42,828 nucleotides of DNA from an uncultured Staphylococcaceae bacterium (GCA_964507285.1 CAZDPH010000002.1:1-42828), one strand, 5' to 3'. Counted from the stretch's first letter, positions 6,830-26,966 are shown. Program-made: numbers and translations. The notes: generated by a model from the letters alone, not told the origin.

Positions 6830-6842
6830 TTTATTCTCCTTT

Positions 6843-11845: not shown

Positions 11846-12673
11846 TTATTTACCACCATTTTCAATATTTTTTAAATGTTCAGTTAATCTCTTACTCTTT
11901 TGTAAACAAATAAGTCCAGCAGAAATTAATGAAATAGCACCACAAATTAATAAAGCAACGCACCAAACAAATTTAGAAGTCGTTAATCCAGTTACTGTTT
12001 CAGTATTTAGACTTTCAATATATACTAAATAATAACGTAATGGAATCCAAAAAATTCTTAATAATTCAACCACTCCAAGTCCAATTGCAAAATATCCACC
12101 TTTAACATTATATGTTTTTGTTCTTTCTGCAATTAAGAAAGCAGCAAGTAAAACTAAAATATTAATCAATAAATCTAATCCCAATTGAACATCTGGAGTA
12201 CAATTTTTATCTTTATAAATAATTAAAAACATTGCAACATTTAAACAAATAGCTAAAATGCATAACCAAAAAGATGAAGTATTATTTTTATAACGCATAA
12301 TATCACTATGAGTTTCATGTAATTCGCCTTCTAAATCTAACTTTAAATATTTAGCATTTAATTGTAAATTTTCAACTTTTATTAATAAAGAATTATATTT
12401 TTCACTTATTTTAGAAGCTTTTTTTGTAACAATCTTAAATTTACTTTGGAAAACAGAATAATCTTTTTTAGCAACTTTATATTCTAAAGATTTAGGGTCT
12501 AAATTATTTAATTCATTATTTCTTGTTAATGCTTCTTCTTTATATTCAGAAAGTTCAGCTTGAGTATCTTCAAATTTAACTTTTAATTCTGGCAAAACAG
12601 CTTCAATATTTTTAATTGTTCTTTCAATTCTTTTTAATTTACCAGTAACTCTTATTCTTTTAAATTTATTCAT
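11846..12673 (-). CDS. Hypothetical membrane protein: roughly 125 aa N-terminal coiled-coil region plus about 4 TM
   Basis: 275 aa. The N-terminus is heptad-like and K/E/L-rich (KLKRIERTIKNIEAVLPELKVKFEDTQAELSEYKEE...), followed by FWLCILAICLNVAMFLII and three more hydrophobic spans. 2 nt from the ATPase start. Confidence 0.55.
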   Translation of the reverse strand: MNKFKRIRVTGKLKRIERTIKNIEAVLPELKVKFEDTQAELSEYKEEALTRNNELNNLDPKSLEYKVAKKDYSVFQSKFKIVTKKASKISEKYNSLLIKVENLQLNAKYLKLDLEGELHETHSDIMRYKNNTSSFWLCILAICLNVAMFLIIYKDKNCTPDVQLGLDLLINILVLLAAFLIAERTKTYNVKGGYFAIGLGVVELLRIFWIPLRYYLVYIESLNTETVTGLTTSKFVWCVALLICGAISLISAGLICLQKSKRLTEHLKNIENGGK

Positions 12674-13409
12674 CGATAACTACCTCGCTTAAATCCATTG
12701 AAGGATTTTTCTTTTGATATATAAATCTAAAGATACAATAAATAATTGCACCAAGAGAAAGTAAAACAATAATTCCGAATACTACAAATCCTAAAATAAA
12801 TACCCAACTAAATGTATTATAGGAGAAATATTCTTTAATTGCATCAACCCCTAATCCGTTTTGATAACTATAATAAGCATTAATAATATTATATGCAACG
12901 TTATTTTTACAATAATTACTCCATGAAATCAATTGATAAATTCCATATCCAGCAGTACCACATCCAAATAAGCCAGCAGCGCCTAATGTAATGTAATTAG
13001 ATATATAAAATACTTCTCTTTTTTGTGAATGGAATAAAAAACCAATAGCAGTAAGAATAATACCGATTAATCCAAAATTGAATAAAAAGTGATTAAAACC
13101 TTGAAGTTCACCACCAACCCCTGTGGTTTGATTTTGTTTACAGAAATTTACAAAATAAGATAAATTATAACCAACTAATTTGCCACTTCTATAAGCATAT
13201 GCAGCATCTGCGAAATCTGTGCTCCAAACTCCGTATGTTGTTGCATTACTTTTACTAAAAACAGCGTCAGTAATGTAAAAATCATAAAAAGGAGTCATAA
13301 ATATTAAACTATAGACAAATAAAAGTATCATAGAAAAAAAGATGGCAAAAACAATTGGTTTTTGTAATTTAAATATGAGACTTTTATTTGTATTTGGATT
13401 TTCCTTCAT
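12666..13409 (-). CDS. Hypothetical membrane protein (about 4 TM) with aromatic-rich extracytoplasmic loops
   Basis: 247 aa. TM1 IVFAIFFSMILLFVYSLIF, then a Y/W/F-rich roughly 65 aa loop, then three further TM spans. GGAGAG SD. 8-nt overlap with the next ORF. Confidence 0.55.
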   Translation of the reverse strand: MKENPNTNKSLIFKLQKPIVFAIFFSMILLFVYSLIFMTPFYDFYITDAVFSKSNATTYGVWSTDFADAAYAYRSGKLVGYNLSYFVNFCKQNQTTGVGGELQGFNHFLFNFGLIGIILTAIGFLFHSQKREVFYISNYITLGAAGLFGCGTAGYGIYQLISWSNYCKNNVAYNIINAYYSYQNGLGVDAIKEYFSYNTFSWVFILGFVVFGIIVLLSLGAIIYCIFRFIYQKKNPSMDLSEVVIDE

Positions 13410-13468: not shown

Positions 13469-15661
13469 TTATTTCATTAAATCGTAAGCATCATTATAAA
13501 TAGTAACTGCTTTCTTTAAATTTAATGTTTCGTTGATATATGTTAAATATCCTGATTTAGTATATAAGACTTCACCAGTTGATGTTGTTCCACCAAATCC
13601 ATACATAACATATTTATTCCAAATATTATAATTTGAAGTAGATGAATTTGTATGAATATTTCCTAAACCAGCACTTTCTAATGTAGAAAGTTGTGTTGAT
13701 TCACCAGCAGATAAATTAAATGAGCTTGGTGTAATAGTGTAGAATCCATTGTCTGTGAAATCTAATTCAACATGTTTAAATGTTCCAACTTCTAATGCAT
13801 GAGCAACAATGTTACAACCATTAACTGCATTAGCATTTGTACATTGTACTTCAACACCATAATTCTTAACAGATCCAATATTTAAACCTGCACCAACATA
13901 TTTTCTGAAATAGTTAGTATAGTTATCTTTACCGATTGTTGTATCATGGAATTGAGCTAATGTTTCTTCTGATAATTGTGGGACACCATTAACAATTTCT
14001 GTATAATATCCTTCGCTTACTGGACCTGCTGTATATAAAGCTTGTCCTTCTTCAGAATAGAAGAAATCAAATAATTTTAATGCCTTAGCTAATTTAGCTT
14101 CATCTTTAACAATACTTGCATTAATACACCAGCCTTCTGTTTTAACACTTCTCCAGCTTTCTGTGAATTGCATCCACTTTGTTTTATATGTTCCAGTTTT
14201 TTCATCATATGATTCTTTCCATTCAGCAACAGCATTGATAATTGGTCTAAAATCATAACCTTCAACTGCTTTTGACCCAGCTTTATCATTCCAAGCACCT
14301 TGAGATTGAGAATAATCATATTCCATAAATCCACAATATGTTTTTCCTTCAACTGTAGCACCATTACCATTGAAAATTGCACTTGCGAATTTACCATCAG
14401 TAGCACCATTACTTGCTTTTGTTTCGAAATCTTTAGCAATCAAGCCTTCATCGTATAATTCATTTAAATATTCAAGTAATTCAGTTACATCTTCTTCACC
14501 TCTAGCATCATGAATCTTACCATCAGCACCAACATATAAGTAACCTTTTCTTGATTCTAATCCTTTAATGCCCCACATTTGAGCGCCCCATCTATAAAGA
14601 TCAGAAATTCTTGAGTTATTGTATTCTCTAGGAACAAATGCAATCATGTTTGTCTCTGCATTTCCTGTTAATGCTTTTGGTGAAGCTTTAACAATTCTCA
14701 TTAAAGCAATCATTTCATCTGCATCATAAGAAGCATCAACACCTAAGAATAAATCAGATTTAGTAGCATATTGTGATCCATATCTATCACTAATATATTG
14801 TCTAAATTGAGCAACTAATGATTTAGCATCTGCTTTTCCAGCATCAATTAATTCATTTTGTAATTCAATAATGTTTTTATCTGTTGATTTCTTTGTAATA
14901 GTTTTTGTACCATCACTTTCCATTGATTCAGGAACAGAAACTTCATAATTTGTTTTACCCATTCCTTTGTAACTTGATTTAGTAACAAGACCAGTATTTG
15001 TATCCCAATCAACATTTTCTTCATCTAAGATTTTTCTAACAAAATCAGCTCTTACTAAAGTATATTTTTCAACATCATCAAAGCCATCAAAATATGGAGC
15101 ATAATAAATTGCACTCTTACTTGTATCTTTATAAGATGTTGATTCGATAGAAACTTTAACAATTGGATTTGCTTCCAAGAATGCTTTGAAATTTGGAAGA
15201 TAATCCATATATTCATTTAAATCTAAAATTGTTCCTGAAGATGTTCCATATGATGAAATATCTGTAACGTTACCAACAGCAATATCAGCAAATTGATTTG
15301 TTAACCAGTTATTTTTGAAATAATCAGTTGCTTTTCCACTTGAATCAGTAACATCATTAATTGTGAAATCTAATTGATCAGAAACAGCTTTCCAAACAGG
15401 TTTTAAATCACCTTGTTTAATTTTTGTTCCAGCTGGAGTTGAGTAGTCAACACTTTCATTAAAAGTTAAACCAGTTGATTTATCATAATTAACTGACATT
15501 GAAAGTGTACAATGTTCATCTGGTAATGGATCAACAGGATCGACTGGATCAACAGGATCGACTGGATCAACAGGATCTACAGTTGAACCTCCTCCACATG
15601 CAGTTAGTACTAAGCCTAATAATCCTGCGCTTAATACACTTAAAAATCTTTTATTTTTCAT
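13469..15661 (-). CDS. Lipoprotein, extracellular solute-binding protein of the LplA/YtcQ-type (CUT1) family, unusually long
   Basis: 730 aa. Signal peptide plus lipobox LVLTAC-GGG, a (DPV)6 linker, then an SBP-like body. Sits directly downstream of the two permease genes. Confidence 0.8.
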   Translation of the reverse strand: MKNKRFLSVLSAGLLGLVLTACGGGSTVDPVDPVDPVDPVDPVDPLPDEHCTLSMSVNYDKSTGLTFNESVDYSTPAGTKIKQGDLKPVWKAVSDQLDFTINDVTDSSGKATDYFKNNWLTNQFADIAVGNVTDISSYGTSSGTILDLNEYMDYLPNFKAFLEANPIVKVSIESTSYKDTSKSAIYYAPYFDGFDDVEKYTLVRADFVRKILDEENVDWDTNTGLVTKSSYKGMGKTNYEVSVPESMESDGTKTITKKSTDKNIIELQNELIDAGKADAKSLVAQFRQYISDRYGSQYATKSDLFLGVDASYDADEMIALMRIVKASPKALTGNAETNMIAFVPREYNNSRISDLYRWGAQMWGIKGLESRKGYLYVGADGKIHDARGEEDVTELLEYLNELYDEGLIAKDFETKASNGATDGKFASAIFNGNGATVEGKTYCGFMEYDYSQSQGAWNDKAGSKAVEGYDFRPIINAVAEWKESYDEKTGTYKTKWMQFTESWRSVKTEGWCINASIVKDEAKLAKALKLFDFFYSEEGQALYTAGPVSEGYYTEIVNGVPQLSEETLAQFHDTTIGKDNYTNYFRKYVGAGLNIGSVKNYGVEVQCTNANAVNGCNIVAHALEVGTFKHVELDFTDNGFYTITPSSFNLSAGESTQLSTLESAGLGNIHTNSSTSNYNIWNKYVMYGFGGTTSTGEVLYTKSGYLTYINETLNLKKAVTIYNDAYDLMK
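15528..15581 (-). repeat. Tandem 9-bp repeat x6 (GGATCRACW; also readable as 18-bp x3) encoding the (DPV)6 linker
   Basis: ggatcaaca ggatcgact ggatcaaca ggatcgact ggatcaaca ggatctaca read directly from the sequence. In frame within the SBP lipoprotein gene just after the lipobox Cys. Confidence 0.95.
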
Positions 15662-15727: not shown

Positions 15728-16612
15728 CTATTCCTTAACGCCACCTAAATTAACACCAGCAGCAAAATATTTTTGAATAAATGGATAAATAATAATGATA
15801 GGTATAATTGCAGCAACAATCATACAATAAAATAACGATGTCATTGAGAAATTACCAAAATCTGGACGTGAATCTAATGAGTTCATTTGATCTAAGAAGT
15901 TTTTAATATAGACTTGTAAAGGTTGTTGTAATTCATCAGAGACAACTTGAGCTGCCCAGAAATAACCATTCCATCTAGAAATACCATAGAATAAACCAAC
16001 AGTAGCAATAGTAGCTTTACTCATAGGAATATAAACTTTATTACAAATTTGAGTTTCAGTAGCTCCATCAACAATAGCAGCTTCTTCAACTTCCTTAGGA
16101 ACACCTGCAAAACCATTTCTTAAAAGAATAACATTGTAAGCATTTAACCCCATTGCAATAACAACTAACCATTTATCATCAATAATTCCTATTGCGTGGA
16201 AAATATCTTTAGTATTATCATAGTTTAATTTTGTAGCAAATAAACCTGCCGAGAACCACATTGTGAATACAAGTAAGAAATTTAATACTCTATTAAATGG
16301 CATTCTCTTTTTACTTAATGCATAACCACCATAAATAGAAACAACCATTGCGAATATTGTACCTAAAGCAGTCAAGAATAATGTATTTGAATAAGAAATC
16401 CAGAATGTTTTTTGTTGGAATGTATAAATAAATGCATCAAATTGGAAAGCATTTGGAAATAAAATTAAACTTCCGGCTTCCATTTGTTCCTTTCCAGCTA
16501 TCGCAGCACAAATTGAATAAACGAAAGGATATAAACAAAATAATGCAAATATAGTTAAGAAGGTATAAGCTAAAATTTTAAATATAATTTCTGATGCGTC
16601 TAAACGTTTCAT
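15728..16612 (-). CDS. ABC sugar transporter permease (LplC/YtcP-like, BPD_transp_1)
   Basis: 294 aa, 6 TM. EAA-loop region EEAAIVDGATETQICNKVYIPMSK. Confidence 0.9.
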   Translation of the reverse strand: MKRLDASEIIFKILAYTFLTIFALFCLYPFVYSICAAIAGKEQMEAGSLILFPNAFQFDAFIYTFQQKTFWISYSNTLFLTALGTIFAMVVSIYGGYALSKKRMPFNRVLNFLLVFTMWFSAGLFATKLNYDNTKDIFHAIGIIDDKWLVVIAMGLNAYNVILLRNGFAGVPKEVEEAAIVDGATETQICNKVYIPMSKATIATVGLFYGISRWNGYFWAAQVVSDELQQPLQVYIKNFLDQMNSLDSRPDFGNFSMTSLFYCMIVAAIIPIIIIYPFIQKYFAAGVNLGGVKE

Positions 16613-16630
16613 ATTTTAATTTAACCTCCA

Positions 16631-17647
16631 TTAATATAAAGATGTATCGCTAATCTTACGAGCTATCATATTACTACCAATAACAAGTAACATTGCAATA
16701 ATTGCATTAAATAAATCAGCACTAGCAGCAATAGCTTTTGATAAAACGTTAATTGCGCCATCTGATGTAGCCATACCAGCATTTCTCATGACATAAGTTG
16801 AAACGATATCTGCTGTTTCATAAATACTATTATTATATAAGAGGTAAACTTTTTCATAACCAACAGTAAATAATTTACCAATTTCAAGAATTAACATAAT
16901 AGTTAAAGTTGAACCAATTCCTGGGAATGTAACATATCTAATTTGAGCTAATTTACTTGCTCCATCCATTCTAGCAGCTTCATAGCTTGTAGGAGAAATA
17001 GATAAAATAGCAGCAAAATAAACAATTGAACCATAACCTGCAGCTTCCCAAATACCTGAAACTTGATATACAGCTCTAAAGTATTGAGGATCTTGTAATA
17101 ATTTAGCACCTTCAGGAATTAAGTGAATTGTAGTTAAGAATTGAGTTAAAACACCACCATTATAAGAACTTGTTTGAGGAGCAACTAATAATTGAACAAG
17201 TGTAGTAACAACAACTAATGAGACAAATTTAGGAAGATATGAGAAAATTTGAACAATACTTCTATAAATTTGATTTTTAACTTCACTAAATAATAAAGCT
17301 AAGATAATAGGAAATGGGAATCCAAATAACAATCCATAGAAAGCTAACATAAATGTATTTCTAAATGCTCTCCAGAATAATGGGTCGGTCATAATAGCTT
17401 TAAATCCAGCTAAACCAACGAAATTACTACCCATAATACCTAAACCAGTATCAAAATCTTTAAATGCAACAGTTAAACCATACATTGGTAAATATCTCCA
17501 GAAGATAAATACTAAGACAAGTGGCAAAAGCATTACATATAAACGCCAATCTTTTAAGACACGTTTACCAACAAATTTCCAATAATTTTTTTCGTAATAG
17601 AGTTGGACACGTTTTCTTTCAAATTCAGTTTTATTTTTTTCTTCCAT
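16631..17647 (-). CDS. ABC sugar transporter permease (LplB/YteP-like)
   Basis: EAA loop YEAARMDGASKLAQIRYVTFPGI. Start moved to MEEKNK (ATG 17647) with AAAGGAATAGG upstream. This removes the overlap produced by the 17677 start. Confidence 0.9.
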   Translation of the reverse strand: MEEKNKTEFERKRVQLYYEKNYWKFVGKRVLKDWRLYVMLLPLVLVFIFWRYLPMYGLTVAFKDFDTGLGIMGSNFVGLAGFKAIMTDPLFWRAFRNTFMLAFYGLLFGFPFPIILALLFSEVKNQIYRSIVQIFSYLPKFVSLVVVTTLVQLLVAPQTSSYNGGVLTQFLTTIHLIPEGAKLLQDPQYFRAVYQVSGIWEAAGYGSIVYFAAILSISPTSYEAARMDGASKLAQIRYVTFPGIGSTLTIMLILEIGKLFTVGYEKVYLLYNNSIYETADIVSTYVMRNAGMATSDGAINVLSKAIAASADLFNAIIAMLLVIGSNMIARKISDTSLY

Positions 17648-17651
17648 AAAC

Positions 17652-18416
17652 CTATTCCTTTTTATCTTTATTCTCATTATCTAAATGAGATTTATATAAG
17701 TCATCCAATTCCTTTAACTCTCTTGCAGTTAATTCACCACCATCAAGTAAATTTGAATTATCAATTTGTCCAAATTCTGTGAAGGGTTTGTCACTATTGA
17801 AATTTGGAGATTCTTGATATTCTTTTAAATGACCTAATTTATTTCTTTCTTGAACATATTTAATATATTCTTTGCTTTCAACAATAAGTTGAGATTTTTT
17901 ATTATTAGCAATAAGCAAAATTATAATTGATATTACTAAACTCATACTTTCTAAGACACATTCAACTCTTAAATTATTAATAAATGTATCAAGAAATGTT
18001 GAATAATTGAACAAGCCAAGAATGAAACATCTTGTTAGAATTACAAAACCATATGAAATTATCAAATATGGAACAAAAACATAATTCTTTTTTAGTTTTT
18101 TTCTACCTATTAAGTATTGAAATATCAAAACTGGAATAATTAATGATATTGCTCCACCTATATAGGCAACATATTGAGAAAGTTCTGAAGACTTCCCTGC
18201 AATACATGCTGCAAGAGCTCCTCCTATTCCAACAATTATTCCCATAATTCCATTTCTATAAATACAAATTAAGGATAAAATTACCGAATAAGATAAAAAA
18301 ATTATTCTATACTCACCTAAAACGGTAGTAGTCGCAAAATAATTTAATAATTCAAATATAACAGCTAGGAAAGTAAAAACACATAAATCGAGAAATTTAT
18401 ATTTTCCTAAACTCAT
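17652..18416 (-). CDS. Hypothetical polytopic membrane protein (5-6 TM) with roughly 75 aa acidic cytoplasmic tail; first gene of the importer operon
   Basis: 254 aa. The hydrophobic core is faintly reminiscent of ECF S-components (not demonstrable by eye). The tail is ...ELTARELKELDDLYKSHLDNENKDKKE. Confidence 0.55.
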   Translation of the reverse strand: MSLGKYKFLDLCVFTFLAVIFELLNYFATTTVLGEYRIIFLSYSVILSLICIYRNGIMGIIVGIGGALAACIAGKSSELSQYVAYIGGAISLIIPVLIFQYLIGRKKLKKNYVFVPYLIISYGFVILTRCFILGLFNYSTFLDTFINNLRVECVLESMSLVISIIILLIANNKKSQLIVESKEYIKYVQERNKLGHLKEYQESPNFNSDKPFTEFGQIDNSNLLDGGELTARELKELDDLYKSHLDNENKDKKE

Positions 18417-18544: not shown

Positions 18545-19633
18545 CTATTTCTTATACTTTTCTTCCATTAATTGAATTAAAGAATCATCATCAAAATAGT
18601 TAATTTTCATACAATCTTTTAATTCTTTTAAATTCTTAGAAGCAATACTTTTAGCGTATTTTGTGCCTTCTTTTAAAGATTCATAGACATAAGGAATATT
18701 ATTTTCTAATTCATGACGTTTAATTCTAATAGGTTCTAAAAAATCATTTAACACATTTTCTAAGAAACGTTTGCATTTAACATCTCCTAAACCACCTTTT
18801 CTATAATGAGTTTTTAATTCTTCTAAATTATTATATTCAGGCCAATATTTTTTAAACATTTCGTCATTACAAAAAGCATCTAAATAAGTAAATACAGCGT
18901 TATTTTCAGTAGATCCTGGATCTTCTATTTTTAAATGATTTGGATCTGTAAACATAGACATAACTTTTTTATGAAGTTCTTCTTTTGTATCGCTTAAATA
19001 TATACAATTACCTAAAGATTTTGACATTTTAGCTTTCCCATCAGTACCAGGAAGTCTTCTTGAATTTAAATTATCTGGAATTAATGCTTTAGGTTCAATT
19101 AAATTCCCATTATATATAGAATTAAATTTTCTAACTATCTCACGAGTTTGTTCAATCATTGGAAGTTGATCTTCTCCTACTGGAACAATATTTGCTTTAA
19201 ATGCCGTAATATCTGCAGCTTGAGAAATTGGATAAGTTAAAAACCCAGTAGGAATTGAATCTCCAAATGCTCTTAATTTTAATTCATTTTTAACAGTAGG
19301 ATTTCTTTCTAATGTAGATAATGTTACTAAATTTAAATAATAGAAAGTAAATTCAGTTAATTCAGATACTTCTGATTGAATAAAAATGTGACATTTTTTA
19401 GGATCTAATCCACAAGACATATAATCTAAAGCTACTTCTAAAATATTTTCTCTAATTTTAGAAGGATTATCATAATTATCTGTTAAAGCTTGAGCATCTG
19501 CAATCATAATAAACATATCATCATAATCACCAGTATTTTGAATTTCTACTCTTCTTTTTAAACTTCCTATATAATGACCTATATGTAATTTTCCTGTAGG
19601 TCTATCTCCGGTTAAAATAATTTTCTTTTCCAT
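18545..19633 (-). CDS. trpS: Tryptophan--tRNA ligase
   Basis: 362 aa. HIGH motif GKLHIGHY, KMSKS motif present verbatim, and the TrpRS-typical GEDQ. Confidence 0.95.
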   Translation of the reverse strand: MEKKIILTGDRPTGKLHIGHYIGSLKRRVEIQNTGDYDDMFIMIADAQALTDNYDNPSKIRENILEVALDYMSCGLDPKKCHIFIQSEVSELTEFTFYYLNLVTLSTLERNPTVKNELKLRAFGDSIPTGFLTYPISQAADITAFKANIVPVGEDQLPMIEQTREIVRKFNSIYNGNLIEPKALIPDNLNSRRLPGTDGKAKMSKSLGNCIYLSDTKEELHKKVMSMFTDPNHLKIEDPGSTENNAVFTYLDAFCNDEMFKKYWPEYNNLEELKTHYRKGGLGDVKCKRFLENVLNDFLEPIRIKRHELENNIPYVYESLKEGTKYAKSIASKNLKELKDCMKINYFDDDSLIQLMEEKYKK

Positions 19634-19708: not shown

Positions 19709-19728
19709 AAGTAAGCCTAAGCTTACTT
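19709..19728 (-). terminator. Rho-independent terminator ending the uxaB-fusion/uxaA/TIM-barrel operon
   Basis: Minus strand: aagtaagc-ttag-gcttactt followed by tttttatt. Overlaps the TAA stop of the 279-aa ORF. Confidence 0.65.
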
Positions 19729-20562
19729 TTTATTAATTATTTTTTTAATTAATTCTAATGAAGTAAGAATATCTTCTCCAGTTACTCCTTCAAAAGTTAA
19801 AACAGCATCATTACAATATTTTTTAACATTATCGATAATAAAATTAAAATCAATAATACCTTTTCCTAATCCACATTGTTTTAATGATTCATTTTCAACA
19901 TAAAAATCTTTTAAATGAATAACTTTAATATTATCTTTAAATGTTGATAAGGCTTCAATAAAAATTTCTTTATAATTTTTATAATTACCAATATATAAAA
20001 GATTATATATATCAATTGTAATTTTTAAATTTGGAGAATTAATTTCATCATAACATCTTTTTAATGTTTCAACATTATACATAATATGCCCATATGCTGG
20101 TTCCATTAAAACTGTTTTATTACATTTTTCAGCATACATTACTAAATCTTTAAAGATTTCGATACTTTCCATGTAACCAGTTTCAGTTTGATTTTTAGGA
20201 TTATATGTCCATTTATCATCATTATAAGATCCAGTTTCACTTCCTACATAATCACAATCTAATAAAGAAGCATATTTAAGATGTTCTTTAAAGTATTTAA
20301 TATTGTTTTTAACTAATTCTTTATTTGAGTGAACTGGATTAAAATACGCTCCAAGCATTGAAACTTTTAATCCAGATTCTTTTAAATAAGGTGCTACTTT
20401 TAATGCATTTTCTTTTGAAAATAACATTATTTCATTATTATCATCTAATAATGCTTTTTTAAATACAAGTTGAATATAATCAAATCCTACGTCCTTACAT
20501 TTTTTAAAAATTGTTTTATATGATTCTTTTGCTAAATCATGTAATCTAATTCCAATTTTCAT
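19723..20562 (-). CDS. Sugar phosphate isomerase/epimerase, xylose-isomerase-like TIM barrel (AP_endonuc_2 fold)
   Basis: 279 aa. MKIGIRLHD...GFDYIQL...VSMLGAY...LMEPAYGH...VIHLKD...TFEG resembles the family's beta-strand/metal-ligand pattern. Specific activity cannot be assigned. Confidence 0.65.
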   Translation of the reverse strand: MKIGIRLHDLAKESYKTIFKKCKDVGFDYIQLVFKKALLDDNNEIMLFSKENALKVAPYLKESGLKVSMLGAYFNPVHSNKELVKNNIKYFKEHLKYASLLDCDYVGSETGSYNDDKWTYNPKNQTETGYMESIEIFKDLVMYAEKCNKTVLMEPAYGHIMYNVETLKRCYDEINSPNLKITIDIYNLLYIGNYKNYKEIFIEALSTFKDNIKVIHLKDFYVENESLKQCGLGKGIIDFNFIIDNVKKYCNDAVLTFEGVTGEDILTSLELIKKIINKK

Positions 20563-20564
20563 TT

Positions 20565-22043
20565 TTATAATGTAACTCCATCTTTAAAGATTGAAATTTC
20601 TTCAAATTTATTAATTTCATTTTTAGCTTTCTTTTCTCCATTAATAATAGAGATAACTAAATCTTTAAAATCATTAAATACTTTTTCTTTATCGATTCCA
20701 TCTACAATTTGACCAGCATTAAAATCAATCCAAGAATGTTTTTTAGATGCTAAATCGCTATTTGTAGCAATTTTTAATGTAGGAACAAATGTTCCAAAAG
20801 GAGTACCTCTTCCTGTAGTAAATAAAATTAAATGACATCCAATACATGCTAAATTTGTACATGCCATTAAATCATTACCAGGTCCATTTAATAAATTTAA
20901 TCCTTTTTGAGTTAATTCATCACCTAAATATAAACAATCATTAACTTGACTTGTTCCAGCTTTTTGAACACATCCTAAAGATTTATCTTCTAAAGTTGTA
21001 ATTCCACCAGCTCTATTTCCTGGAGATGGATTTTCATAACAAACTTGATTATGTGCAGCATAATAAGCTTTAAAACCATTAATTAAATGAACAATTTTAT
21101 TAAATGTTTCTTCATCTTTACTTCTTGCCATTAAAATTTGTTCAGCTCCAAACATTTCAGGAACTTCACTTAAAACAGTTGTGCCACCTTGAGAAACCAT
21201 AAAATCACTCATCATACCAACTAATGGATTTGCACTGATTCCACTAAATCCATCAGATCCACCGCATTTTAAGCCGATATTTATAACTGATAAAGGAGCT
21301 TCAACTCGTTTATCATTAATCATATTAAAATATAATTCTTTTAATAATTTTACGCCTTCTTCGATTTCATCCTCAACATCTTGAGCTTTTAAGAATCTAA
21401 CTCTAGATTCATCATATTCTCCAAGAGTCTTTTTAAATTCATCAAGTTGATTATTTTCACAACCTAAAGCAAAAACTAATACACCACCATTATTTGGATG
21501 TTTAACTATTGCTTGTAAAGTTTCAATAGTATTTTTAAAATCATCTCCAAGTTGAGAACATCCAAATGGATGTTTAGTTACAATAACTTCATCAATTTTG
21601 GATGTATCAACTTCTTTTTCAAATCTTGATTTAATTAAATCTCCAATTGAATTAACGCAGCCTACCATTGGAACAATTAATAAATTATTTCTTATTCCAT
21701 ATTTATTAAATTTTCTTTTAAAAACATTAACTTTAATATCGCAAATACGTTTAAAGTTATCTTTAAAATCGCCACTAAACTTATATTCAAGTTCGCCACT
21801 TAAATTAGTTTCGACATTATGTTCATGAACATGTTCACCTTTTTTAATATCTTTAGTAGCTCTTCCAATTGGATAGCCGTATTTAATAATATTTTCTTTT
21901 ATTGAAATATCTTTTAATGCAAATTTATGACCTTGAGTAATATCTTCAAGTAATGTTACTCCATTATATACTTCACCTTTTTTTAAATTAGCTAAAGCAA
22001 CTGCAACATTATCAATATTATTAATAATAAGAGTTTTATTCAT
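20565..22043 (-). CDS. uxaA: Altronate dehydratase
   Basis: 492 aa. N-terminal SAF domain (NVAVALANLKKGE...GHKFALKDI), then a GD_AH_C-type domain (GCVN...GCEN...KCGGSD...GC..FTTGRGTP). Confidence 0.9.
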   Translation of the reverse strand: MNKTLIINNIDNVAVALANLKKGEVYNGVTLLEDITQGHKFALKDISIKENIIKYGYPIGRATKDIKKGEHVHEHNVETNLSGELEYKFSGDFKDNFKRICDIKVNVFKRKFNKYGIRNNLLIVPMVGCVNSIGDLIKSRFEKEVDTSKIDEVIVTKHPFGCSQLGDDFKNTIETLQAIVKHPNNGGVLVFALGCENNQLDEFKKTLGEYDESRVRFLKAQDVEDEIEEGVKLLKELYFNMINDKRVEAPLSVINIGLKCGGSDGFSGISANPLVGMMSDFMVSQGGTTVLSEVPEMFGAEQILMARSKDEETFNKIVHLINGFKAYYAAHNQVCYENPSPGNRAGGITTLEDKSLGCVQKAGTSQVNDCLYLGDELTQKGLNLLNGPGNDLMACTNLACIGCHLILFTTGRGTPFGTFVPTLKIATNSDLASKKHSWIDFNAGQIVDGIDKEKVFNDFKDLVISIINGEKKAKNEINKFEEISIFKDGVTL

Positions 22044-22052
22044 ATTATTAGA

Positions 22053-24593
22053 TTAGGCTCCAAATTTTGAATTTAAAGCTTCTTTCATTCCTTTTTTACA
22101 AATTAAATCGTAATTTGCTAATACTTTATCTTCTAATCCTGCAATTAAAGTTAAATCTTCACCCCAGAATGCTTTGTTAGCTAAGACACTATGTACTAAT
22201 TCTTTTGAAGATAAACCTTTTGAATATAAATCTGCAAAGAATGCTAAATATTCTGGATTATCATTTAATTTAATATCTTCTTCTCCACGTTTTCCACCAT
22301 AGAATTTAATTAAAGCAGCAAGTGAGAATAATGCATGTTCTGGTAATTCATTTTTAATTTCAATATATTTTTTAACAGTTCTTAAAACTCTTTCTTTATA
22401 TTTTGAAATTGAATTTAATGCAATTGACATTAATTCATGTCTTACGAATGGATTTAAATATCTATCAAAGACACTATCAGCAAATGCAACCATATCATCA
22501 TGAGGTAAATCAATTGTAGGAATAACTTCATTATATACGAAATCTCTTGCAAATTTACCAACTACTGGATTATCAATTGATTCTTTAACAGTATCAATGC
22601 CTGCTAAATAGCTTACTGGAACAATTGTAGTATGGCAGCCATTTAAAATAGAAACTTTTCTTTGTTTATATGGTTTAATATCATCAACATAACGAGCATC
22701 AACTCCACTATTTTCACCACATTTATTTACAGGGAAATGTTCTTCAATCCATGGTTCTTTTCTTAAACACCATAAATTAAAGATTTCGCCAACTACTAAG
22801 TTATTATCAACATAGCCTAATTCTCTTGTAATTTTTGCAAAATCATCACGTGGGAAACCAGGAACAATTCTATCAACTAATGTTGAAGTGAAATGACATG
22901 CTTCATTAACCCATGCAATAAAATCTTCACTTAAAGAAGCAGTTTTAGCTAATTCTAAAACACATCTCTTTAATTCATCACCATTATTATCAATTAATTC
23001 ACAAGCAACAAATCCTAAACCTTTTGATCTATCACCTTTAAAATGTTCGTATCTATGTTTTAATAAAGCAACAACTTTTCCAGGGAATGTTTTTGGAGTA
23101 ACATCAAAATTAATATCACTTCTATCTAATGTAATACCTGCTTCTGTTGTATTAGAAACAACAATTTCTAAATCTTCACTTTCAGCATATTTTAAATATT
23201 TTTCCCAATCTCTATATGGATTAATAAAATCATCTAAAACATCAATAACTTGGTGTTCTCTGACTTTTTTACCATCTTTAATACCTTGTAAGAATAATGT
23301 ATATAAGCCATCTTGTTTTGCTAAATCATCAACTCTACCAAAATCAAGAGGTTGAACAACTACAACGTGTCCATCATAGTTTCCACTATCATTCATTTTT
23401 TGAATCATCCAATCAGTGAATGCTCTTAAGAAGTTACCTTCACCAAATTGCATAATTTTAATTTTACTTTCTTTCTTTTCATGAATTTTTTTACTTAACC
23501 CACCAAAGACAATTTCTTCAGTATCAGCGTTAAATAAAATTGTATTTTTATAATCTACCACAAACTTTAATTCCTTATTAACTTCAAATTTTTCAAATGG
23601 GCTACATTTGATAACCATATTTTTAGTACCAAAGTATCCATAAATATTCATTGTATCACCGAGTAATTCATTAACTTCTACAAGCATAGAAGATTCAAAT
23701 GAATTGTTACGTTTTTCAACTCCGAGTTCACAATGTTCAGGTCTAAAACCTAAAACAACTCTTTCTAATTTAGAAGCACTTTCTAATTTAGATTCATCAT
23801 AACCTGCTAAAGAAACTTTAATTCCTTCATCGCTAATAAAATCAGTTCCTTCAACTTTACCATAAATAAAATTCATTTGAGGATCTCCGATGAATCCAGC
23901 AACGAACATATTTCTTGGTTCAAAATATAATTCTTTTGGTGTACCAATTTGTTGAATGTATCCATCTTTCATAACAACGATTCTATCAGCCATAGTCATA
24001 GCTTCAATTTGATCGTGAGTAACATAAATTGTTGTAGAACCAACTTCATTATGAATTCTTCTAATTTCACTACGCATATTGACTCTTTGAATAGCATCCA
24101 AATTACTTAAAGGTTCATCCATTAAGAAAACTCTAGAATTTTGAATTAATGCTCTGCCTAAAGCAACTCTTTGTTGTTGACCACCAGAAAGTTCTTTTGG
24201 TTGTCTTGCTAAATATGTTTCAATACCTAACATTTTAGCAGTATCATTAACTCTTTTTTCAATTTCATCTTCATCAAATCCAGCAATTCTTAATGCGAAC
24301 GCTAAATTATCATAAACAGACATTGTTGGATATAAAGCATAGCTTTGGAAACACATTGAAACGCCTCTTTCACGAGGTGATAATTTATTACATACTTGAT
24401 CATTAATAATTAATTTTCCACCACTAATATCTTCAAGTCCAGCAATCATTCTTAATGTAGTAGATTTACCACATCCAGAAGGACCAACAAGAATTATAAA
24501 TTCCTTATCTTTAATATTTAAATTAAAATCATGAACAGCATGGAAACCGTTATCATAAATTTTATTTAAATTTTCAATATTGATTGTTGACAT
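22053..24593 (-). CDS. uxaB: Fusion protein: complete MsmX/MalK-type ABC ATPase (aa 1-362) plus full-length tagaturonate reductase/altronate oxidoreductase UxaB (aa ~379-846)
   Basis: Single 846-codon ORF. N-terminal part: GPSGCGKST, LSGGQQQRV, FLMDEPLSNLD, YVTHDQ, and a MalK-like regulatory domain ending ..ILFNADTEEIVF. The linker is GGLSKKIHEKKESKIK. C-terminal part: IMQFGEGNFLRAFTDW..SNTTEAGI..CELIDNNGD..STLVDRIVPG..DDIKPYKQRKVSILNGCHT, colinear with E. coli UxaB. AAAGGAG SD upstream of aa 1. Confidence 0.9.
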   Translation of the reverse strand: MSTINIENLNKIYDNGFHAVHDFNLNIKDKEFIILVGPSGCGKSTTLRMIAGLEDISGGKLIINDQVCNKLSPRERGVSMCFQSYALYPTMSVYDNLAFALRIAGFDEDEIEKRVNDTAKMLGIETYLARQPKELSGGQQQRVALGRALIQNSRVFLMDEPLSNLDAIQRVNMRSEIRRIHNEVGSTTIYVTHDQIEAMTMADRIVVMKDGYIQQIGTPKELYFEPRNMFVAGFIGDPQMNFIYGKVEGTDFISDEGIKVSLAGYDESKLESASKLERVVLGFRPEHCELGVEKRNNSFESSMLVEVNELLGDTMNIYGYFGTKNMVIKCSPFEKFEVNKELKFVVDYKNTILFNADTEEIVFGGLSKKIHEKKESKIKIMQFGEGNFLRAFTDWMIQKMNDSGNYDGHVVVVQPLDFGRVDDLAKQDGLYTLFLQGIKDGKKVREHQVIDVLDDFINPYRDWEKYLKYAESEDLEIVVSNTTEAGITLDRSDINFDVTPKTFPGKVVALLKHRYEHFKGDRSKGLGFVACELIDNNGDELKRCVLELAKTASLSEDFIAWVNEACHFTSTLVDRIVPGFPRDDFAKITRELGYVDNNLVVGEIFNLWCLRKEPWIEEHFPVNKCGENSGVDARYVDDIKPYKQRKVSILNGCHTTIVPVSYLAGIDTVKESIDNPVVGKFARDFVYNEVIPTIDLPHDDMVAFADSVFDRYLNPFVRHELMSIALNSISKYKERVLRTVKKYIEIKNELPEHALFSLAALIKFYGGKRGEEDIKLNDNPEYLAFFADLYSKGLSSKELVHSVLANKAFWGEDLTLIAGLEDKVLANYDLICKKGMKEALNSKFGA

Positions 24594-24670
24594 ATTATTC
24601 TCCTTTTTACTCTATTATTATATTTATTTAAAAAAAATAATTCATTAAGATTAAGTTTTTATAATTATTC

Positions 24671-24689
24671 ATTGTGTTTAAAACACAAT
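24671..24689. promoter_or_regulatory. Perfect 9+1+9 palindrome ATTGTGTTT-A-AAACACAAT in a divergent promoter region
   Basis: Verified base by base. It lies 78-96 nt upstream of the uxaB-fusion ATG (minus strand) and 61-79 nt upstream of the MATE-esterase ATG (plus strand). Confidence 0.5.
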
Positions 24690-24749: not shown

Positions 24750-26966
24750 ATGAATTCAAGCACTATTACAAAAGAAGAGAAAATAAGAAGACAAGTATTA
24801 ACTGGTAACATTCGGAAAGTAATAATTTACATTACTTTACCATTATTTTTATATCAATTTATGAATTCTTTCTTCAATTTATTAGATCAAATAATGGTTG
24901 CTCAAATTGGAGATAGTAGTGTTTCTGCCGTTGCAACAATTTCTCAAATTAAAACTTTAATTTCATCATTAGGCCTTGGAATTGCAGGAGGTGGAGCAAT
25001 TTTAGTATCTAGAAAATATGGAGCAGGCGATATTAAAGAAGCAAGAAAATACGCTAATAATATGTTTACTATGTCATTAATAGTAAATGCAATTTTTATA
25101 ATTTTAATACCTTTTTCTACATTAATATTAAAAATATGCCAAGTACCAGATGATTTATTATCTATTAGCGATGGTTATTTTAAATTACAAATGTTAGAAC
25201 AAATTCTTATTGTTTTTAATAACATTGCAATTGCATTAGAAAAATCAAAAGGTAATACTAAAATTATTTTAATAATGAACATTGTTAATATGGCAGTTAA
25301 ATTATTATTAAATTTATTATTTATTTATGGATTTAAAGTTGATAGTTTAATTTACATTGAACTTGCAAGTATAATTGCTCAACTCTCAATGTCAATAATT
25401 GCAGGCATATTAATGTTTAGAAAATCTAATATTTTTAGAATTACTTTTAAGGAATTAACTTTAAAATGGTCTTATTCTAAAGAAGTAATTAAAATTTCTT
25501 TTCCTTTATTTTTAGGAAAATGTATTATTTCTTTAGGTAAAGTTTCTGTAAATGCAATGTGTGGAGTTTATGGATCTTTTACAGTAGGAGCATTAGGTAT
25601 TTCAAATAATATATGTGGATTAGTTACTAATCCAGGAGCAGCTTTTGAAGATTCTCAATCATCTATTGTTTCTCAAAATCTTGGAAATCATAATATAAAA
25701 AGAACCTTTAAAGTTTTTTTAAGAAGTGTAGTAATTCTTGGAATTTGGGCATTGCTCGGATTTTTAGTTACTAGAGTGTTTTTTGAAGATCAAATTATAT
25801 CTTTATTTTCTACCGAAAATGTTGATCCAGAATTTTTAAATCAAATTAAAAATATTTATCAATATGATTGTTTATCAATTCCTGCTTTAGCAATTAATTC
25901 AGTAATATTAGGTTTACTTTATGGATATGGACAAACCTTTTTAGCTACTATTAATAATCTTTTAAGAATTGCAATTAGAGTATTAACTTTATTTATTTTA
26001 CAAACATTCTTTCCTGAAATTGGTGCAGAAGCTGCAGGTATTTCGATGGGAATTTCAAATATTGCAATTGGATTAATGGCAATTATATTCTTAATAATTT
26101 TCTTTATTAAAGTAAAAACAAAAGGATATAAAGGAATGAAATTGGATGATCCAGAACCATTAATGTTTGAAAAAGATGGAATATTAATTAGTCAAGATTA
26201 CACTAAACTTAATCCTCCTAATAATATTAAAAAAATATTATTAAAAGATTTAAATTCTTCTTTAAAAGGTGAATTAATAATTTCTTCTAATTTTAATAAC
26301 TCTACTCCAATTATAGTTATTTATCCAGGAGGAGGATATAGTCACTTATCTCCTAGAGAAAGTTATCCTATAATGCATAAATTTAATTCTTTAGGATATA
26401 ATACTGCTTTATTTAATTATAGTGTTTATCCTGATCATTATCCTTTAATAGAAAAAGAAAGTGAAGAAGTAATTAAATATTTATCAAAAACATATAAAAG
26501 TATTTATTTAATAGGTTTTAGTGCAGGAGGTCATTTAGTAGGTTTAACTTCTACCAATAAAAATATTAATAACTTAATTAAGGGATCTATATATTGTTAT
26601 CCTGTTATTACATTTAATAAATATACTCATGAAACAAGTAGAAATAACTTCTTAAATAATGAAATTAATGAATTAAATATTAATAATTATTCAATAGAAA
26701 ATAGAATTGATAATTCTACTCCTCCTTCATTTATATGGACTACAATTAATGATAAAGTTGTTCCTTGGATGAACACTTTACTTTATAAATATAATATGGA
26801 TTTATCTTCTAGATATTGTGAAATGATTATATATAGAGATGGAGTTCATGGAAGTGCTTTAGCAGATCTTTCAAGTATTACTGAAGATAATTTAGATTAT
26901 TATAATGAAGACTTGATGTCTTGGGTAATATACGCAGATGAATTTATTAAAAAAAATAGAAAGTAA
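24750..26966 (+). CDS. Fusion protein: MATE-family transporter (aa 1-~455, 12 TM) plus alpha/beta-hydrolase esterase domain (aa ~500-738)
   Basis: The N-terminal half has the MATE/NorM-like layout (LPLFLYQFMNSFFNLLDQIMVAQIGD..; internal repeat FPLFLGKCIISLGK..). The C-terminal half has the oxyanion motif IYPGGGY, nucleophile elbow GFSAGGH, acidic residue in TTINDKVVP, and His in DGVHGSA. Confidence 0.85.
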   Translation: MNSSTITKEEKIRRQVLTGNIRKVIIYITLPLFLYQFMNSFFNLLDQIMVAQIGDSSVSAVATISQIKTLISSLGLGIAGGGAILVSRKYGAGDIKEARKYANNMFTMSLIVNAIFIILIPFSTLILKICQVPDDLLSISDGYFKLQMLEQILIVFNNIAIALEKSKGNTKIILIMNIVNMAVKLLLNLLFIYGFKVDSLIYIELASIIAQLSMSIIAGILMFRKSNIFRITFKELTLKWSYSKEVIKISFPLFLGKCIISLGKVSVNAMCGVYGSFTVGALGISNNICGLVTNPGAAFEDSQSSIVSQNLGNHNIKRTFKVFLRSVVILGIWALLGFLVTRVFFEDQIISLFSTENVDPEFLNQIKNIYQYDCLSIPALAINSVILGLLYGYGQTFLATINNLLRIAIRVLTLFILQTFFPEIGAEAAGISMGISNIAIGLMAIIFLIIFFIKVKTKGYKGMKLDDPEPLMFEKDGILISQDYTKLNPPNNIKKILLKDLNSSLKGELIISSNFNNSTPIIVIYPGGGYSHLSPRESYPIMHKFNSLGYNTALFNYSVYPDHYPLIEKESEEVIKYLSKTYKSIYLIGFSAGGHLVGLTSTNKNINNLIKGSIYCYPVITFNKYTHETSRNNFLNNEINELNINNYSIENRIDNSTPPSFIWTTINDKVVPWMNTLLYKYNMDLSSRYCEMIIYRDGVHGSALADLSSITEDNLDYYNEDLMSWVIYADEFIKKNRK

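Follow-up and report, generated by a model that had tools for sequence, protein, structure and literature searches.

An in-frame msmX-uxaB gene fusion joining a sugar-importer ATPase to tagaturonate reductase in uncultured gut bacteria

A single ORF in the window (the whole 42,828-nt stretch of DNA analyzed here) is a true in-frame join of a complete MalK/MsmX-type ABC ATPase and, downstream of it, an essentially full-length tagaturonate reductase, UxaB (Table 1). Four Pfam domains score above their gathering cut-offs in the 846-codon product: ABC_tran (residues 21-162; 105 bits, cut-off 25), OB_MalK (38.7 bits, cut-off 27), Mannitol_dh (residues 379-613; 96.7 bits), and Mannitol_dh_C (residues 638-830; 118.4 bits). 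Two NCBIfam profiles are covered nearly to their ends: residues 1-361 correspond to positions 1-354 of the 357 in NF008653 (UgpC-type ATPase), and residues 366-842 correspond to positions 4-480 of the 482 in NF002969 (tagaturonate reductase; 586 bits vs. the cut-off of 359). This coverage bears out the first-pass annotation, which had read the ORF as two complete proteins joined together, and a tblastn search agrees with its statement that the window contains no separate uxaB gene. No stop codon is present across the msmX/uxaB junction, as had also been reported. The fusion gene thus encodes a predicted bifunctional protein of ~97 kDa, whose junction would be spanned by peptides such as NTILFNADTEEIVFGGLSK. 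An identical copy of the protein is encoded on an independent ENA contig.

Table 1. Features of the msmX-uxaB fusion gene and its surroundings in the window
Feature	Coordinates	Strand	Details
msmX::uxaB fusion ORF	22053..24593	-	846 codons, ATG start; TAA stop at 22053..22055
ABC nucleotide-binding domain (NBD), aa 1-235	23889..24593	-	Pfam ABC_tran
MalK-type C-terminal regulatory (OB/TOBE-like) domain, aa 236-363	23505..23888	-	Pfam OB_MalK 236-287; ends ..NADTEEIVF
True joint, two codons, G364 and G365	23499..23504	-	From the sister junctions L083 and L091 and the orthologue alignment
Native UxaB N-terminal tail, L366-K379, LSKKIHEKKESKIK	23457..23498	-	Same tail in stand-alone UxaBs P0040, P0063, P0057
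UxaB body, aa 380-846	22056..23456	-	Rossmann domain with QFGEGNFLRAF, catalytic K646-x4-N651-x2-H654, C-terminal helical domain
Shine-Dalgarno AGGAGA of the fusion gene	24599..24604	-	Kept in the orthologue upstream alignment
uxaA (altronate dehydratase)	20565..22043	-	Pfam SAF/GD_AH; 9 nt downstream of the fusion; 71% identical to sister uxaA
uxaC (glucuronate/galacturonate isomerase)	4333..5745	-	Pathway step 1, unfused; Pfam UxaC, 681 bits
Two CUT1-type permeases (BPD_transp_1)	15728..16612 and 16631..17677	-	Candidate partners of the fused ATPase
Lipoprotein, 730 aa	13469..15661	-	Signal ..LTAC/GGGS (slash, cleavage site), (DPV)5 spacer; probably solute-binding protein, judged by position
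Second, unfused MsmX/UgpC-type ATPase, 359 aa	10764..11843	-	Paralogue, 44% identical to the fused ATPase
Palindrome TTGTGTTT-A-AAACACAA	24672..24688	.	Divergent promoter region; candidate operator

Six motifs of the ATPase half are intact, as first noted, and invariant in 11 orthologues: Walker A (GPSGCGKS at 37), the Q-loop (82-83), LSGGQ (135), Walker B (FLMDEP at 156), the D-loop (SNLD at 163), and the H-loop (VTHDQ at 191). The Q-loop region is a variant one, with YPTM in place of YPHM. The best PDB matches to this half are 7x0q_A and MsmX of B. subtilis (6yir_A); the latter aligns with residues 2-359 (346 bits), and the alignment reaches residues 2-361 of the 373 in 6yir_A. The regulatory domain, which aligns with the C-terminal end of stand-alone homologues, ends at F363, in agreement with the first-pass annotation, and is modeled by AF2 as a beta-rich fold (pLDDT around 90).

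The UxaB half carries the Rossmann GxGxxxxR motif, as in the long-chain mannitol-dehydrogenase family. Its N-terminal motif IMQFGEGNFLRAF starts at I380, the position initially given, and the 11 orthologues show no variation in QFGEGNFLRAF (382) or K646-x4-N651-x2-H654. By analogy with P. fluorescens mannitol 2-dehydrogenase, the Lys/Asn/His triad is taken to be catalytic. The PDB search returned no solved UxaB structure, the nearest relatives being 4im7 (YdfI), 7rk4, and 1lj8, with mannitol 2-dehydrogenases among them; PDB chains spanning both halves of the fusion were not found either.

The region between the two halves had been interpreted as an added Lys/Glu-rich linker of ~16 residues. 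Alignments correct this view: residues 366-379 are evidently the N-terminal tail of UxaB itself, and only two residues are new, since stand-alone UxaB proteins share this tail (for example, MEQLSKKIHEKKYKKIKVMQFGEGNF in P0040) and the NF002969 alignment starts at residue 366. In the orthologues, the joint is occupied by G-[G/E/N/S]. As judged from sister lineages, the two-codon joint stands in for (i) the acidic tail of MsmX, (ii) its stop codon, (iii) a spacer of 1-4 nt, (iv) a Shine-Dalgarno sequence, and (v) the initial Met-Lys of UxaB.

The sister loci (L083-L086 and L091/L092) consist of msmX (371/373 aa), a spacer of 4 or 1 nt, uxaB (481 aa), uxaA, and an AP_endonuc_2 gene, and upstream of msmX the MatE and esterase genes are found again in divergent orientation. 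Across the operon, the fused clade and the sister lineages show similar levels of identity (69-71% for msmX, 67% for uxaB, and 71% for uxaA). No permease gene was found within 8 kb of msmX in the sister loci. Since msmX and uxaB are separate genes in these lineages, with only 1-4 nt between them within the operon, the fusion was most simply made by a small deletion of 3n+1 nt. The ancestor would have had msmX and uxaB as neighboring genes of one galacturonate operon, spaced in this way. The deletion (34 nt relative to L083) would have taken away the end of msmX (the acidic C-terminal tail and the stop codon), the spacer, and the start of uxaB (the Shine-Dalgarno sequence and the first 2-3 codons), leaving UxaB in frame behind the regulatory domain of the ATPase.

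The search for orthologous two-domain proteins in related genomes, proposed in the first-pass annotation, was successful. Proteins of the same architecture (841-846 aa) form five 90%-identity clusters with 78-100% identity; more than 70 distinct variants were found on more than 100 contigs (NCBI, ENA, JGI, and Logan), and the fusion is present in 10 GTDB species-representative assemblies. The fused frame is kept across both synonymous and non-synonymous changes at the junction, with no reversal among the sampled variants.

These orthologues bear on the possibility of a sequencing or assembly artifact, namely, that a +/-1 error in a homopolymer, or a chimeric join, merged two genes. An A7 run (T7 on the plus strand) is indeed located where it had been reported, at 23486..23492, inside the UxaB tail and five codons downstream of the joint, and a +1 or -1 shift there leads to stop codons within 3-20 codons. 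Nevertheless, the chance of such an artifact is vanishingly small: (i) the contigs carrying the fusion come from independent projects and assemblers, (ii) the run is interrupted in 8 of the 10 orthologues, which are still in frame, and (iii) the ancestral N-terminal sequence of UxaB continues in frame on both sides of the run. Because the orthologous fusions recur so widely, most of them without A7, the homopolymer caveat can be set aside. We also rejected two related candidates. One extra A in 'gaaaag' (~23476-23480) would restore an msmX stop (after ..HEKERK) and a uxaB start (MKKKESKIK..), but the upstream in-frame LSKKIHEKK belongs to the native UxaB N-terminus and the frame is kept in all orthologues. 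Programmed slippage on A7, giving an ATPase-only product, was discarded in view of the same interruptions of the run.

The dN/dS values of the protein parts (0.065 for the NBD, 0.19 for both the regulatory domain and UxaB, and 0.30 for the tail) identify the NBD as the most constrained part and the tail as the least constrained one, and they indicate that purifying selection maintains both halves in every descendant species sampled. From the available genomes, the fusion is limited to a clade of uncultured, very AT-rich gut bacteria: contigs of the fused clade have 25-30% GC, and Bacilli is the one label that fits them throughout (UBA6877 under Caryophanales/Bacillales). Among the best 150 of the matches in 1.84 billion representatives, none covers both halves. 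A literature search revealed no paper joining MsmX with UxaB or tagaturonate reductase, in line with the initial impression that this architecture had not been described.

Downstream of the fusion, at 4.4-8 kb and on the same strand in both the window and L088, are the genes for the two CUT1-type permeases and the lipoprotein; the latter has no Pfam or NCBIfam match. The permease gene order is the same in L088, the most divergent fused species. The second, canonical ATPase gene, which is absent from the first-pass annotation, is a conserved member of this cluster. The exact palindrome of the window, located in the divergent promoter region, is not conserved, whereas its orthologue form ATTGTGC-N5-GCACAAT is; the palindrome is common to fused and unfused lineages and is also found upstream of the unfused msmX in L083.

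One gene does not necessarily mean one working bifunctional protein. Separate products could arise from a start near Met381 or by proteolysis of the tail, or one half could have lost its role; for example, the fused ATPase might no longer energize a transporter if its paralogue does that job. The conserved paralogue is consistent with such a loss, and the fused ATPase may not power the adjacent permeases, because a more canonical ATPase is encoded in the same cluster: the paralogue scores 464 bits against NF008653 and the fused ATPase 429.2 bits, 3 bits below the cut-off of 432. Against a lost role, the ATP-binding and hydrolysis motifs are invariant and the NBD is the part under the strongest constraint. 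The tail, predicted to be flexible and rich in Lys, could be protease-sensitive. As for a second start, a weak purine run resembling an SD precedes Met381 in some orthologues (-4.5 to -5.1 kcal/mol vs. the gene-start median of -5.7). However, no conserved SD was found before this codon, the signal being at background level in 5 of the 11 orthologues, and the ancestral start codon and SD of uxaB have been deleted. Met381 (23451..23453, as first mapped) also belongs to the family motif, being conserved in stand-alone UxaBs, and lies within Rossmann strand beta1 (378-383) of the AF2 model, so that a product starting from it would miss half of the first Rossmann strand. Thus, the internal start suggested in the first-pass annotation is unlikely, and we regard the whole class of explanations by split products or a lost role as very improbable.

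Several other gene fusions were found in related pectin loci. In the clade that carries msmX-uxaB, the adjacent MatE and esterase genes are also fused (24750..26966); the sister lineage has them as two genes. In the GH88-MsmX fusion (P0097, on 8 contigs), the ATPase belongs to the orthologous group that is also joined to UxaB, and the MsmX-GH88 (P0238) and MatE-GH88 (L016 and L095) fusions again combine a transport component with a cytoplasmic pectin enzyme. UxaB-UxaA and aldose epimerase-UxaB fusions occur elsewhere (P0237, P0310, P0211, and P0225). The transporter-enzyme fusions among them point either to strong compaction of genes or to a benefit from enzyme-transporter tethering.

The second possibility leads to a selected coupling, in which a transporter-tethered pectin metabolon raises the local flux, or the ligand or redox state of UxaB tunes uptake via the regulatory domain. 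In the redox version, the state of NADH/NAD+, tagaturonate, or altronate would be passed through the MalK-type domain to ATP hydrolysis, as in ATPases with accessory C-terminal domains. The attachment point of UxaB is consistent with this idea: the regulatory domain of MalK is a site of regulatory protein contacts, and one ABC ATPase with an additional domain at its C-terminus, CmpC, is available in the PDB (9u9z_C, 665 aa). The independent origin of the related transporter-enzyme fusions and the retention of the msmX-uxaB fusion in all sampled variants point in the same direction. Other observations argue against coupling. UxaB catalyzes the second step of the pathway, and UxaC, UxaA, and the glycosidases are unfused, which makes a direct hand-over of the imported substrate impossible. 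The AF2 model consists of two well-folded halves with pLDDT <50 at residues 364-376, so the joint is predicted to be flexible and the tether disordered, and no confident inter-domain packing is predicted (pTM 0.51). The tether is also the least constrained region, sister lineages do without the fusion, with a gap of 1-4 nt between the genes, and the fusions of UxaB to non-transport neighbors (UxaA and aldose epimerase) fit a generic tendency to fuse neighboring genes. On balance, a selected coupling appears unlikely. In particular, the channeling at the transporter proposed in the first-pass annotation received no support from any computed result: tagaturonate arises only after hydrolysis and isomerization by UxaC, the joint is probably flexible, and a small deletion would suffice for its origin. 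Nor did any computed result support the proposed sensing of NADH through the regulatory domain. We consider rather improbable the broadest version, according to which pectin catabolism in low-GC gut Bacilli and their relatives is organized around transporters, MsmX-UxaB is one selected tether, and UxaB occupancy feeds back on ATP hydrolysis; if true, it would provide a natural importer whose power unit senses the downstream catabolic or redox state.

The probable explanation overall is an inherited, genuine gene fusion that places an ordinary pathway enzyme on a working ATPase, with no new coupled mechanism. The N-terminal half would still dimerize and dock under CUT1 permeases, likely the nearby pair with its lipoprotein, and would drive the import of oligo- or monogalacturonides released from pectin. 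Every ATPase subunit would bear one NADH-dependent tagaturonate reductase on a flexible tether of ~13 residues, UxaB's own tail. The role of UxaB would be that of a normal enzyme of the pathway, which is synthesized in a 1:1 ratio with the ATPase and is in part kept close to the membrane. The fusion may have been fixed as harmless or mildly useful in a gene-compacting lineage, with one translation start fewer and guaranteed co-expression. This near-neutral reading plays down the repeated fusions of transporters and pectin enzymes (five combinations), which could mean that tethering itself was selected.

If made as predicted, the protein is a natural experiment on the size of cargo that a MalK-type ATPase can carry: the regulatory domain is followed by a 53-kDa enzyme, so that two copies of UxaB would be present per transporter. 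The split msmX and uxaB genes of the sister lineages are matched controls for the effect of tethering on flux or regulation, and together with the other transporter-enzyme fusions in pectin loci they offer a direct route to test the idea of a bacterial transport metabolon. Annotation pipelines are likely to name the fusion after one of its halves or to call a frameshift. As a result, UxaB or the importer ATPase could be wrongly scored as missing in metabolic reconstructions of gut bacteria.

Each half of the fusion resembles a known protein. The reductase matches the tagaturonate reductase (altronate oxidoreductase) family of long-chain mannitol dehydrogenases over its full length and shares its locus with uxaA and uxaC. 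Unlike stand-alone UxaB, it lacks its own start codon and ribosome-binding site, and the ATPase takes the place of its first 2-3 residues. The ATPase half shares with B. subtilis MsmX (6YIR) the domain plan of an NBD followed by a MalK-type regulatory domain, and every motif is present. MsmX of B. subtilis is a multitask ATPase for CUT1 sugar importers and is needed for the uptake of pectin-derived oligosaccharides (PMC5730181, PMC7658222). Like multitask ATPases, the fused one is encoded in a pectin/galacturonate locus away from permease genes. It differs from B. subtilis MsmX in (i) the 483-residue C-terminal enzyme, (ii) its membership in a diverged orthologous group (YPTM, LSGGQQQR, LDAIQR), and (iii) the presence of a more canonical paralogue in its own cluster. 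For MsmX-GFP transposon fusions in B. subtilis, only punctate fluorescence has been reported, which has little bearing on cargo tolerance (PMC13599486, PMC9241775).

As a gene fusion, msmX-uxaB is similar to Rosetta stone proteins, which arise from adjacent operon genes: the parts are separate neighbors in relatives, they are joined through the loss of a stop codon and of the downstream start, and both are under selection. In contrast to the UxaB-UxaA and aldose epimerase-UxaB fusions, UxaB is joined in this case to a subunit of a transporter and not to the next pathway enzyme; therefore, the fusion links membrane transport machinery to cytoplasmic catabolism.

ATPases with accessory domains provide another comparison. 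NrtC/CmpC, MetN, and ModC carry C-terminal ligand-binding domains, which are sensors of the transported solute that inhibit transport; CmpC chains of 665-690 aa were found in the PDB search. In these proteins, as in the fusion, the extra module is at the C-terminal end, away from the contact surface for the membrane domains, whereas the module in the fusion is a complete catalytic oxidoreductase with no predicted interface. Finally, SulP anion transporters fused to carbonic anhydrase were described by Felce and Saier (2004), as cited and discussed in PMC6458275. Like msmX-uxaB, they place a transport component in one polypeptide with an enzyme from its own pathway, and the juxtaposed genes are fused in some genomes but not in others. 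Two differences set them apart: carbonic anhydrase acts directly on the transported species, whereas at least two steps separate uptake from the UxaB reaction, and the fused partner of UxaB is a soluble ATPase subunit rather than a membrane domain.

The msmX::uxaB gene is a single ORF of 846 codons, as the first-pass annotation had described it, and both Pfam and NCBIfam recognize two complete partners in it. All four Pfam domains, ABC_tran (residues 21-162), OB_MalK (236-287), Mannitol_dh (379-613), and Mannitol_dh_C (638-830), exceed their gathering thresholds. Residues 1-361 match positions 1-354 of 357 in the UgpC-type NCBIfam profile NF008653 (429.2 bits vs. a cut-off of 432), and residues 366-842 match positions 4-480 of 482 in the UxaB profile NF002969 (586 bits vs. 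a cut-off of 359); therefore, both partners are complete to within approximately three residues. The reported junction details (F363, I380, Met381 at 23451..23453, an A7 run at 23486..23492, and no stop codon) are all correct, and tblastn of the window finds no second uxaB copy, as stated earlier. The 42,828-bp window is GC-poor (25.5%), with very tightly packed and frequently overlapping genes, and the stop codons of its 38 long ORFs are TAA (31), TAG (6), and TGA (1).

Features of the hexuronate utilization locus (coordinates are window positions)
Feature	Coordinates	Strand	Remarks
UxaC	4333..5745		
GH88/105	5747..6901		
GntR/FCD regulator	6843..7493		Encoded in the locus
PucR-type HTH protein	7490..8077		Encoded in the locus
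GH28	8070..9593		
Second MsmX/UgpC-type ATPase	10764..11843	-	359 aa; found by tblastn; 44% identical to the fused ATPase
Lipoprotein	13469..15661	-	730 aa; lipobox LTAC, DPVDPVDPVDPVDPV spacer; directly after the two permease genes
CUT1 permease pair	15728..17677		Candidate partners of the fused ATPase
Tryptophan--tRNA ligase	18545..19633	-	TIGR00233, 239 bits; mid-cluster, after the AP_endonuc_2 gene and ahead of the permeases
AP_endonuc_2 protein	19723..20562	-	Xylose-isomerase-like TIM barrel; weak similarity to sugar 3-epimerases
msmX::uxaB fusion	22053..24593	-	One ORF, 846 codons
Candidate operator palindrome	24672..24688		Divergent promoter region; TTGTGTTT-A-AAACACAA; adjoins a TATAAT box
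MatE-esterase fusion	24750..26966	+	738 aa; MatE ~aa 31-427, alpha/beta-hydrolase ~aa 515-735

The fusion is not an artefact. The protein is identical on one independent ENA contig, and a search of 5.8 billion proteins for orthologous fusions, a check proposed at first pass, revealed five clusters that share the four-domain architecture (78-100% identity, 841-846 aa). Across these clusters there are more than 70 different sequence variants, spread over well in excess of 100 contigs (NCBI, ENA, JGI, and Logan); apart from one fragment truncated at a contig end, every copy is full length. Ten GTDB species-representative assemblies, L002-L011, carry the fusion. The junction DNA of the orthologues varies both synonymously and non-synonymously with the frame preserved, and the A7 run is broken in 8 of 10 orthologues (AAGAAA, AAAAAG, AAGAAG, and others), which rules out the homopolymer error that had been raised as a caveat. 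Some assemblies titled Slackia, Phocaeicola, Gemmiger, or Parabacteroides carry fusion contigs of 25-30% GC; such high-GC or unrelated titles suggest mis-binned contigs or wrong labels, and the consistent label across fusion contigs is uncultured Bacilli. Because of this mismatch, we put the number of diverged lineages with the fusion at five or more, and do not count ten species.

Database copies of the fusion have no protein names. When 1.84 billion cluster representatives were searched exhaustively with HMMER, none of the best 150 hits (lowest score 336 bits) covered both halves; a diverged second fusion is expected to score approximately 600 bits. The literature search found no paper combining MsmX with UxaB or tagaturonate reductase, in line with the first-pass remark that no description of this architecture was known. 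The MsmX-UxaB fusion is thus previously undescribed and clade-restricted.

The joint was originally described as a Lys/Glu-rich linker. Comparison with stand-alone UxaB proteins, whose N-termini read MEQLSKKIHEKKYKKIKVMQFGEGNF (P0040), MENLELLTKKIHEKKTAPVKIMQFGEGNF (P0063), and MELSKKIYDKKYKKIKIMQFGEGNF (P0057), demonstrates that this segment is the own N-terminus of UxaB. Across the joint the fusion reads ..EEIVF-GG-LSKKIHEKKESKIKIMQFGEGNF, and only G364 and G365 are new (G-[G/E/N/S] in orthologues). The same match disproves a missing A that would have fused two overlapping genes, since the in-frame joint sequence is the native N-terminus of stand-alone homologues. The junction-spanning tryptic peptide of the window protein is NTILFNADTEEIVFGGLSK, and each orthologue has its own variant.

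An AlphaFold2 model of the fusion (24-sequence alignment, mean pLDDT 82) predicts well-folded ATPase (1-361) and UxaB (378-846) halves, joined by a segment (364-376) that has pLDDT below 50 and is predicted to be flexible. The pTM of 0.51 therefore gives no confident relative orientation of the halves, and the PDB search found no chain matching both of them. The suggested internal start at Met381 is not supported by these data: this residue, conserved among stand-alone UxaBs, lies inside the first predicted Rossmann strand (378-383), so that a product started there would be damaged. The purine-rich stretch 5' of Met381 has SD-duplex energies of -1.3 to -5.1 kcal/mol across orthologues (gene-start median -5.7, internal-codon mean -2.0 kcal/mol), and no conserved internal start is seen by this measure.

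Substitution patterns indicate that both halves are maintained under selection. Pairwise Nei-Gojobori dN/dS values for 11 orthologues (mean dS approximately 0.6-0.8) are 0.065 for the nucleotide-binding domain, 0.19 for the regulatory domain, 0.19 for UxaB, and 0.30 for the joint plus tail. The ATPase half shows no variation in its Walker A, Q-loop, LSGGQ, Walker B, D-loop, and H-loop motifs, and the UxaB half none in QFGEGNFLRAF or K646-x4-N651-x2-H654.

Sister-lineage contigs retain the gene order of the fused clade with separate genes: msmX (371 or 373 aa), a spacer, uxaB (481 aa), uxaA, and an AP_endonuc_2 gene, with MatE (488 aa) and esterase (242 aa) genes divergently transcribed upstream. 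The msmX-uxaB spacer is 4 nt in L083-L086 and 1 nt in L091/L092; in L083, msmX occupies 6881-7996 and uxaB 8001-9446. The sister junction reads ...ENIIDEKFVVEEE, stop, TAAT ATG AAA CTA TTA ACT AAA GAA, with the uxaB Shine-Dalgarno sequence AGAGGA within the msmX 3' end, and the fusion junction reads ...GAA GAA ATT GTC TTT GGT GGG TTA AGT AAA AAA. The net loss relative to L083 is 34 nt (3n+1), removing the acidic MsmX tail, stop codon, spacer, SD, and the UxaB Met-Lys. When the fused clade is compared with the sister lineage, identities are similar for msmX (69-71%), uxaB (67%), and uxaA (71%); the operon has therefore descended as a single block. Among related loci, the ATPase is approximately 2.6 kb upstream of uxaB in L013-L017, the order in L016 and L095 is msmX, MatE::GH88, uxaB, uxaA, uxaC, and more than 60 more distant genomes have no same-strand MsmX-type ATPase within 10 kb. 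The trajectory was therefore from nearby to adjacent to fused genes. The fusion arose once, by a common mechanism, from two well-known families.

The fused gene is the first in its operon and has a conserved SD, AGGAGA. In L003-L011, the conserved candidate operator palindrome that precedes the fused gene has the form ATTGTGC-N5-GCACAAT; it is degenerate in L002 and is shared with the unfused msmX of L083 (~72 nt upstream), and the window contains no second copy. Whether or not the lineage has the fusion (L083, L088, L091, L093), the gene after uxaA is always AP_endonuc_2, and its product is a conserved member of the hexuronate operon. The tryptophan--tRNA ligase gene is missing from the equivalent position of L088, the most divergent fused species.

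The gene cluster encodes two MsmX-type ATPases vs. one permease pair. The unfused paralogue is more canonical (464 vs. 429 bits for NF008653; YAHM vs. YPTM in the Q-loop region) and is embedded in a group of five small proteins (9597..10752, 11846..13409, 17652..18416) with predicted membrane or coiled-coil character; these match no Pfam or NCBIfam family and may be uncharacterised transporter components. L088 keeps the order SBP, two unknowns, ATPase, two unknowns, and that of L087 is similar. The lipoprotein, also lacking Pfam and NCBIfam matches, probably represents a divergent solute-binding protein of unusually large size; its arrangement with the permeases is kept in L088, and no permease occurs within 8 kb of msmX-uxaB in the sister loci.

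Five transporter-enzyme combinations were found in this one pathway. The MatE-esterase protein, whose hydrolase is of the BD-FAE/acetylxylan-esterase/pectin-acetylesterase type, adjoins msmX::uxaB in divergent orientation and is also fused in L088, whereas the sister loci L083 and L091 have separate genes overlapping by 20 nt. The other combinations come from related loci. GH88/105-MsmX proteins with N-terminal GH88 (731 aa; P0097, L087 6001-8196, and P0089) occur on 8 contigs; one 90%-identity cluster includes an NCBI protein of 367 aa that bears a UgpC annotation, and this fusion may be variable or split by annotation. The reverse order, MsmX-GH88, is found in P0238 (720 aa), and MatE-GH88 proteins (845-848 aa; L016 7426-9963, L095 2410-4956) in at least two lineages. 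The ATPases of GH88-MsmX belong to the orthologous group of the UxaB-fused ATPase (53-55% identity vs. 47-48% to the paralogue group). This notable accumulation, the clade-specific joining of MatE and esterase, and the recurrent use of one ATPase group would fit functional coupling, as a metabolon or as allosteric feedback between transport and UxaB. However, UxaB is fused elsewhere to non-transport neighbours, in aldose 1-epimerase-UxaB (784-792 aa) and UxaB-UxaA (948-996 aa) proteins (P0211, P0225, P0237, P0310); a general propensity for adjacent genes to become fused is thus the simpler explanation, and we consider coupling unlikely.

The observation made at first pass is therefore confirmed, and its interpretation is supported only in part. 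An imported oligo- or monogalacturonide would undergo hydrolysis (GH28, GH88/105) and then UxaC isomerisation before reaching UxaB, and all these enzymes are unfused, which makes the proposed channelling at the transporter implausible. We favor, as the likely reading, a predicted bifunctional protein of ~97 kDa, in place of separate products of 41 and 53 kDa, whose fusion was fixed because it did no harm, or brought a slight advantage, in a genome undergoing compaction; the present evidence calls for no new mechanism. In B. subtilis, several importers of oligosaccharides derived from pectin are energized by MsmX (PMC5730181). By analogy, the ATPase half would dimerise and dock beneath CUT1 permeases, the nearest candidate partners being the permease pair and the lipoprotein, and each ATPase subunit would carry one UxaB on a tether of ~13 residues. 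A MalK-type ATPase naturally loaded with an enzyme, together with matched split controls, is worth an experiment by ABC-transporter specialists; the B. subtilis msmX yurJ background provides an assay system with pectin and arabinan oligosaccharides (PMC5730181, PMC7658222).
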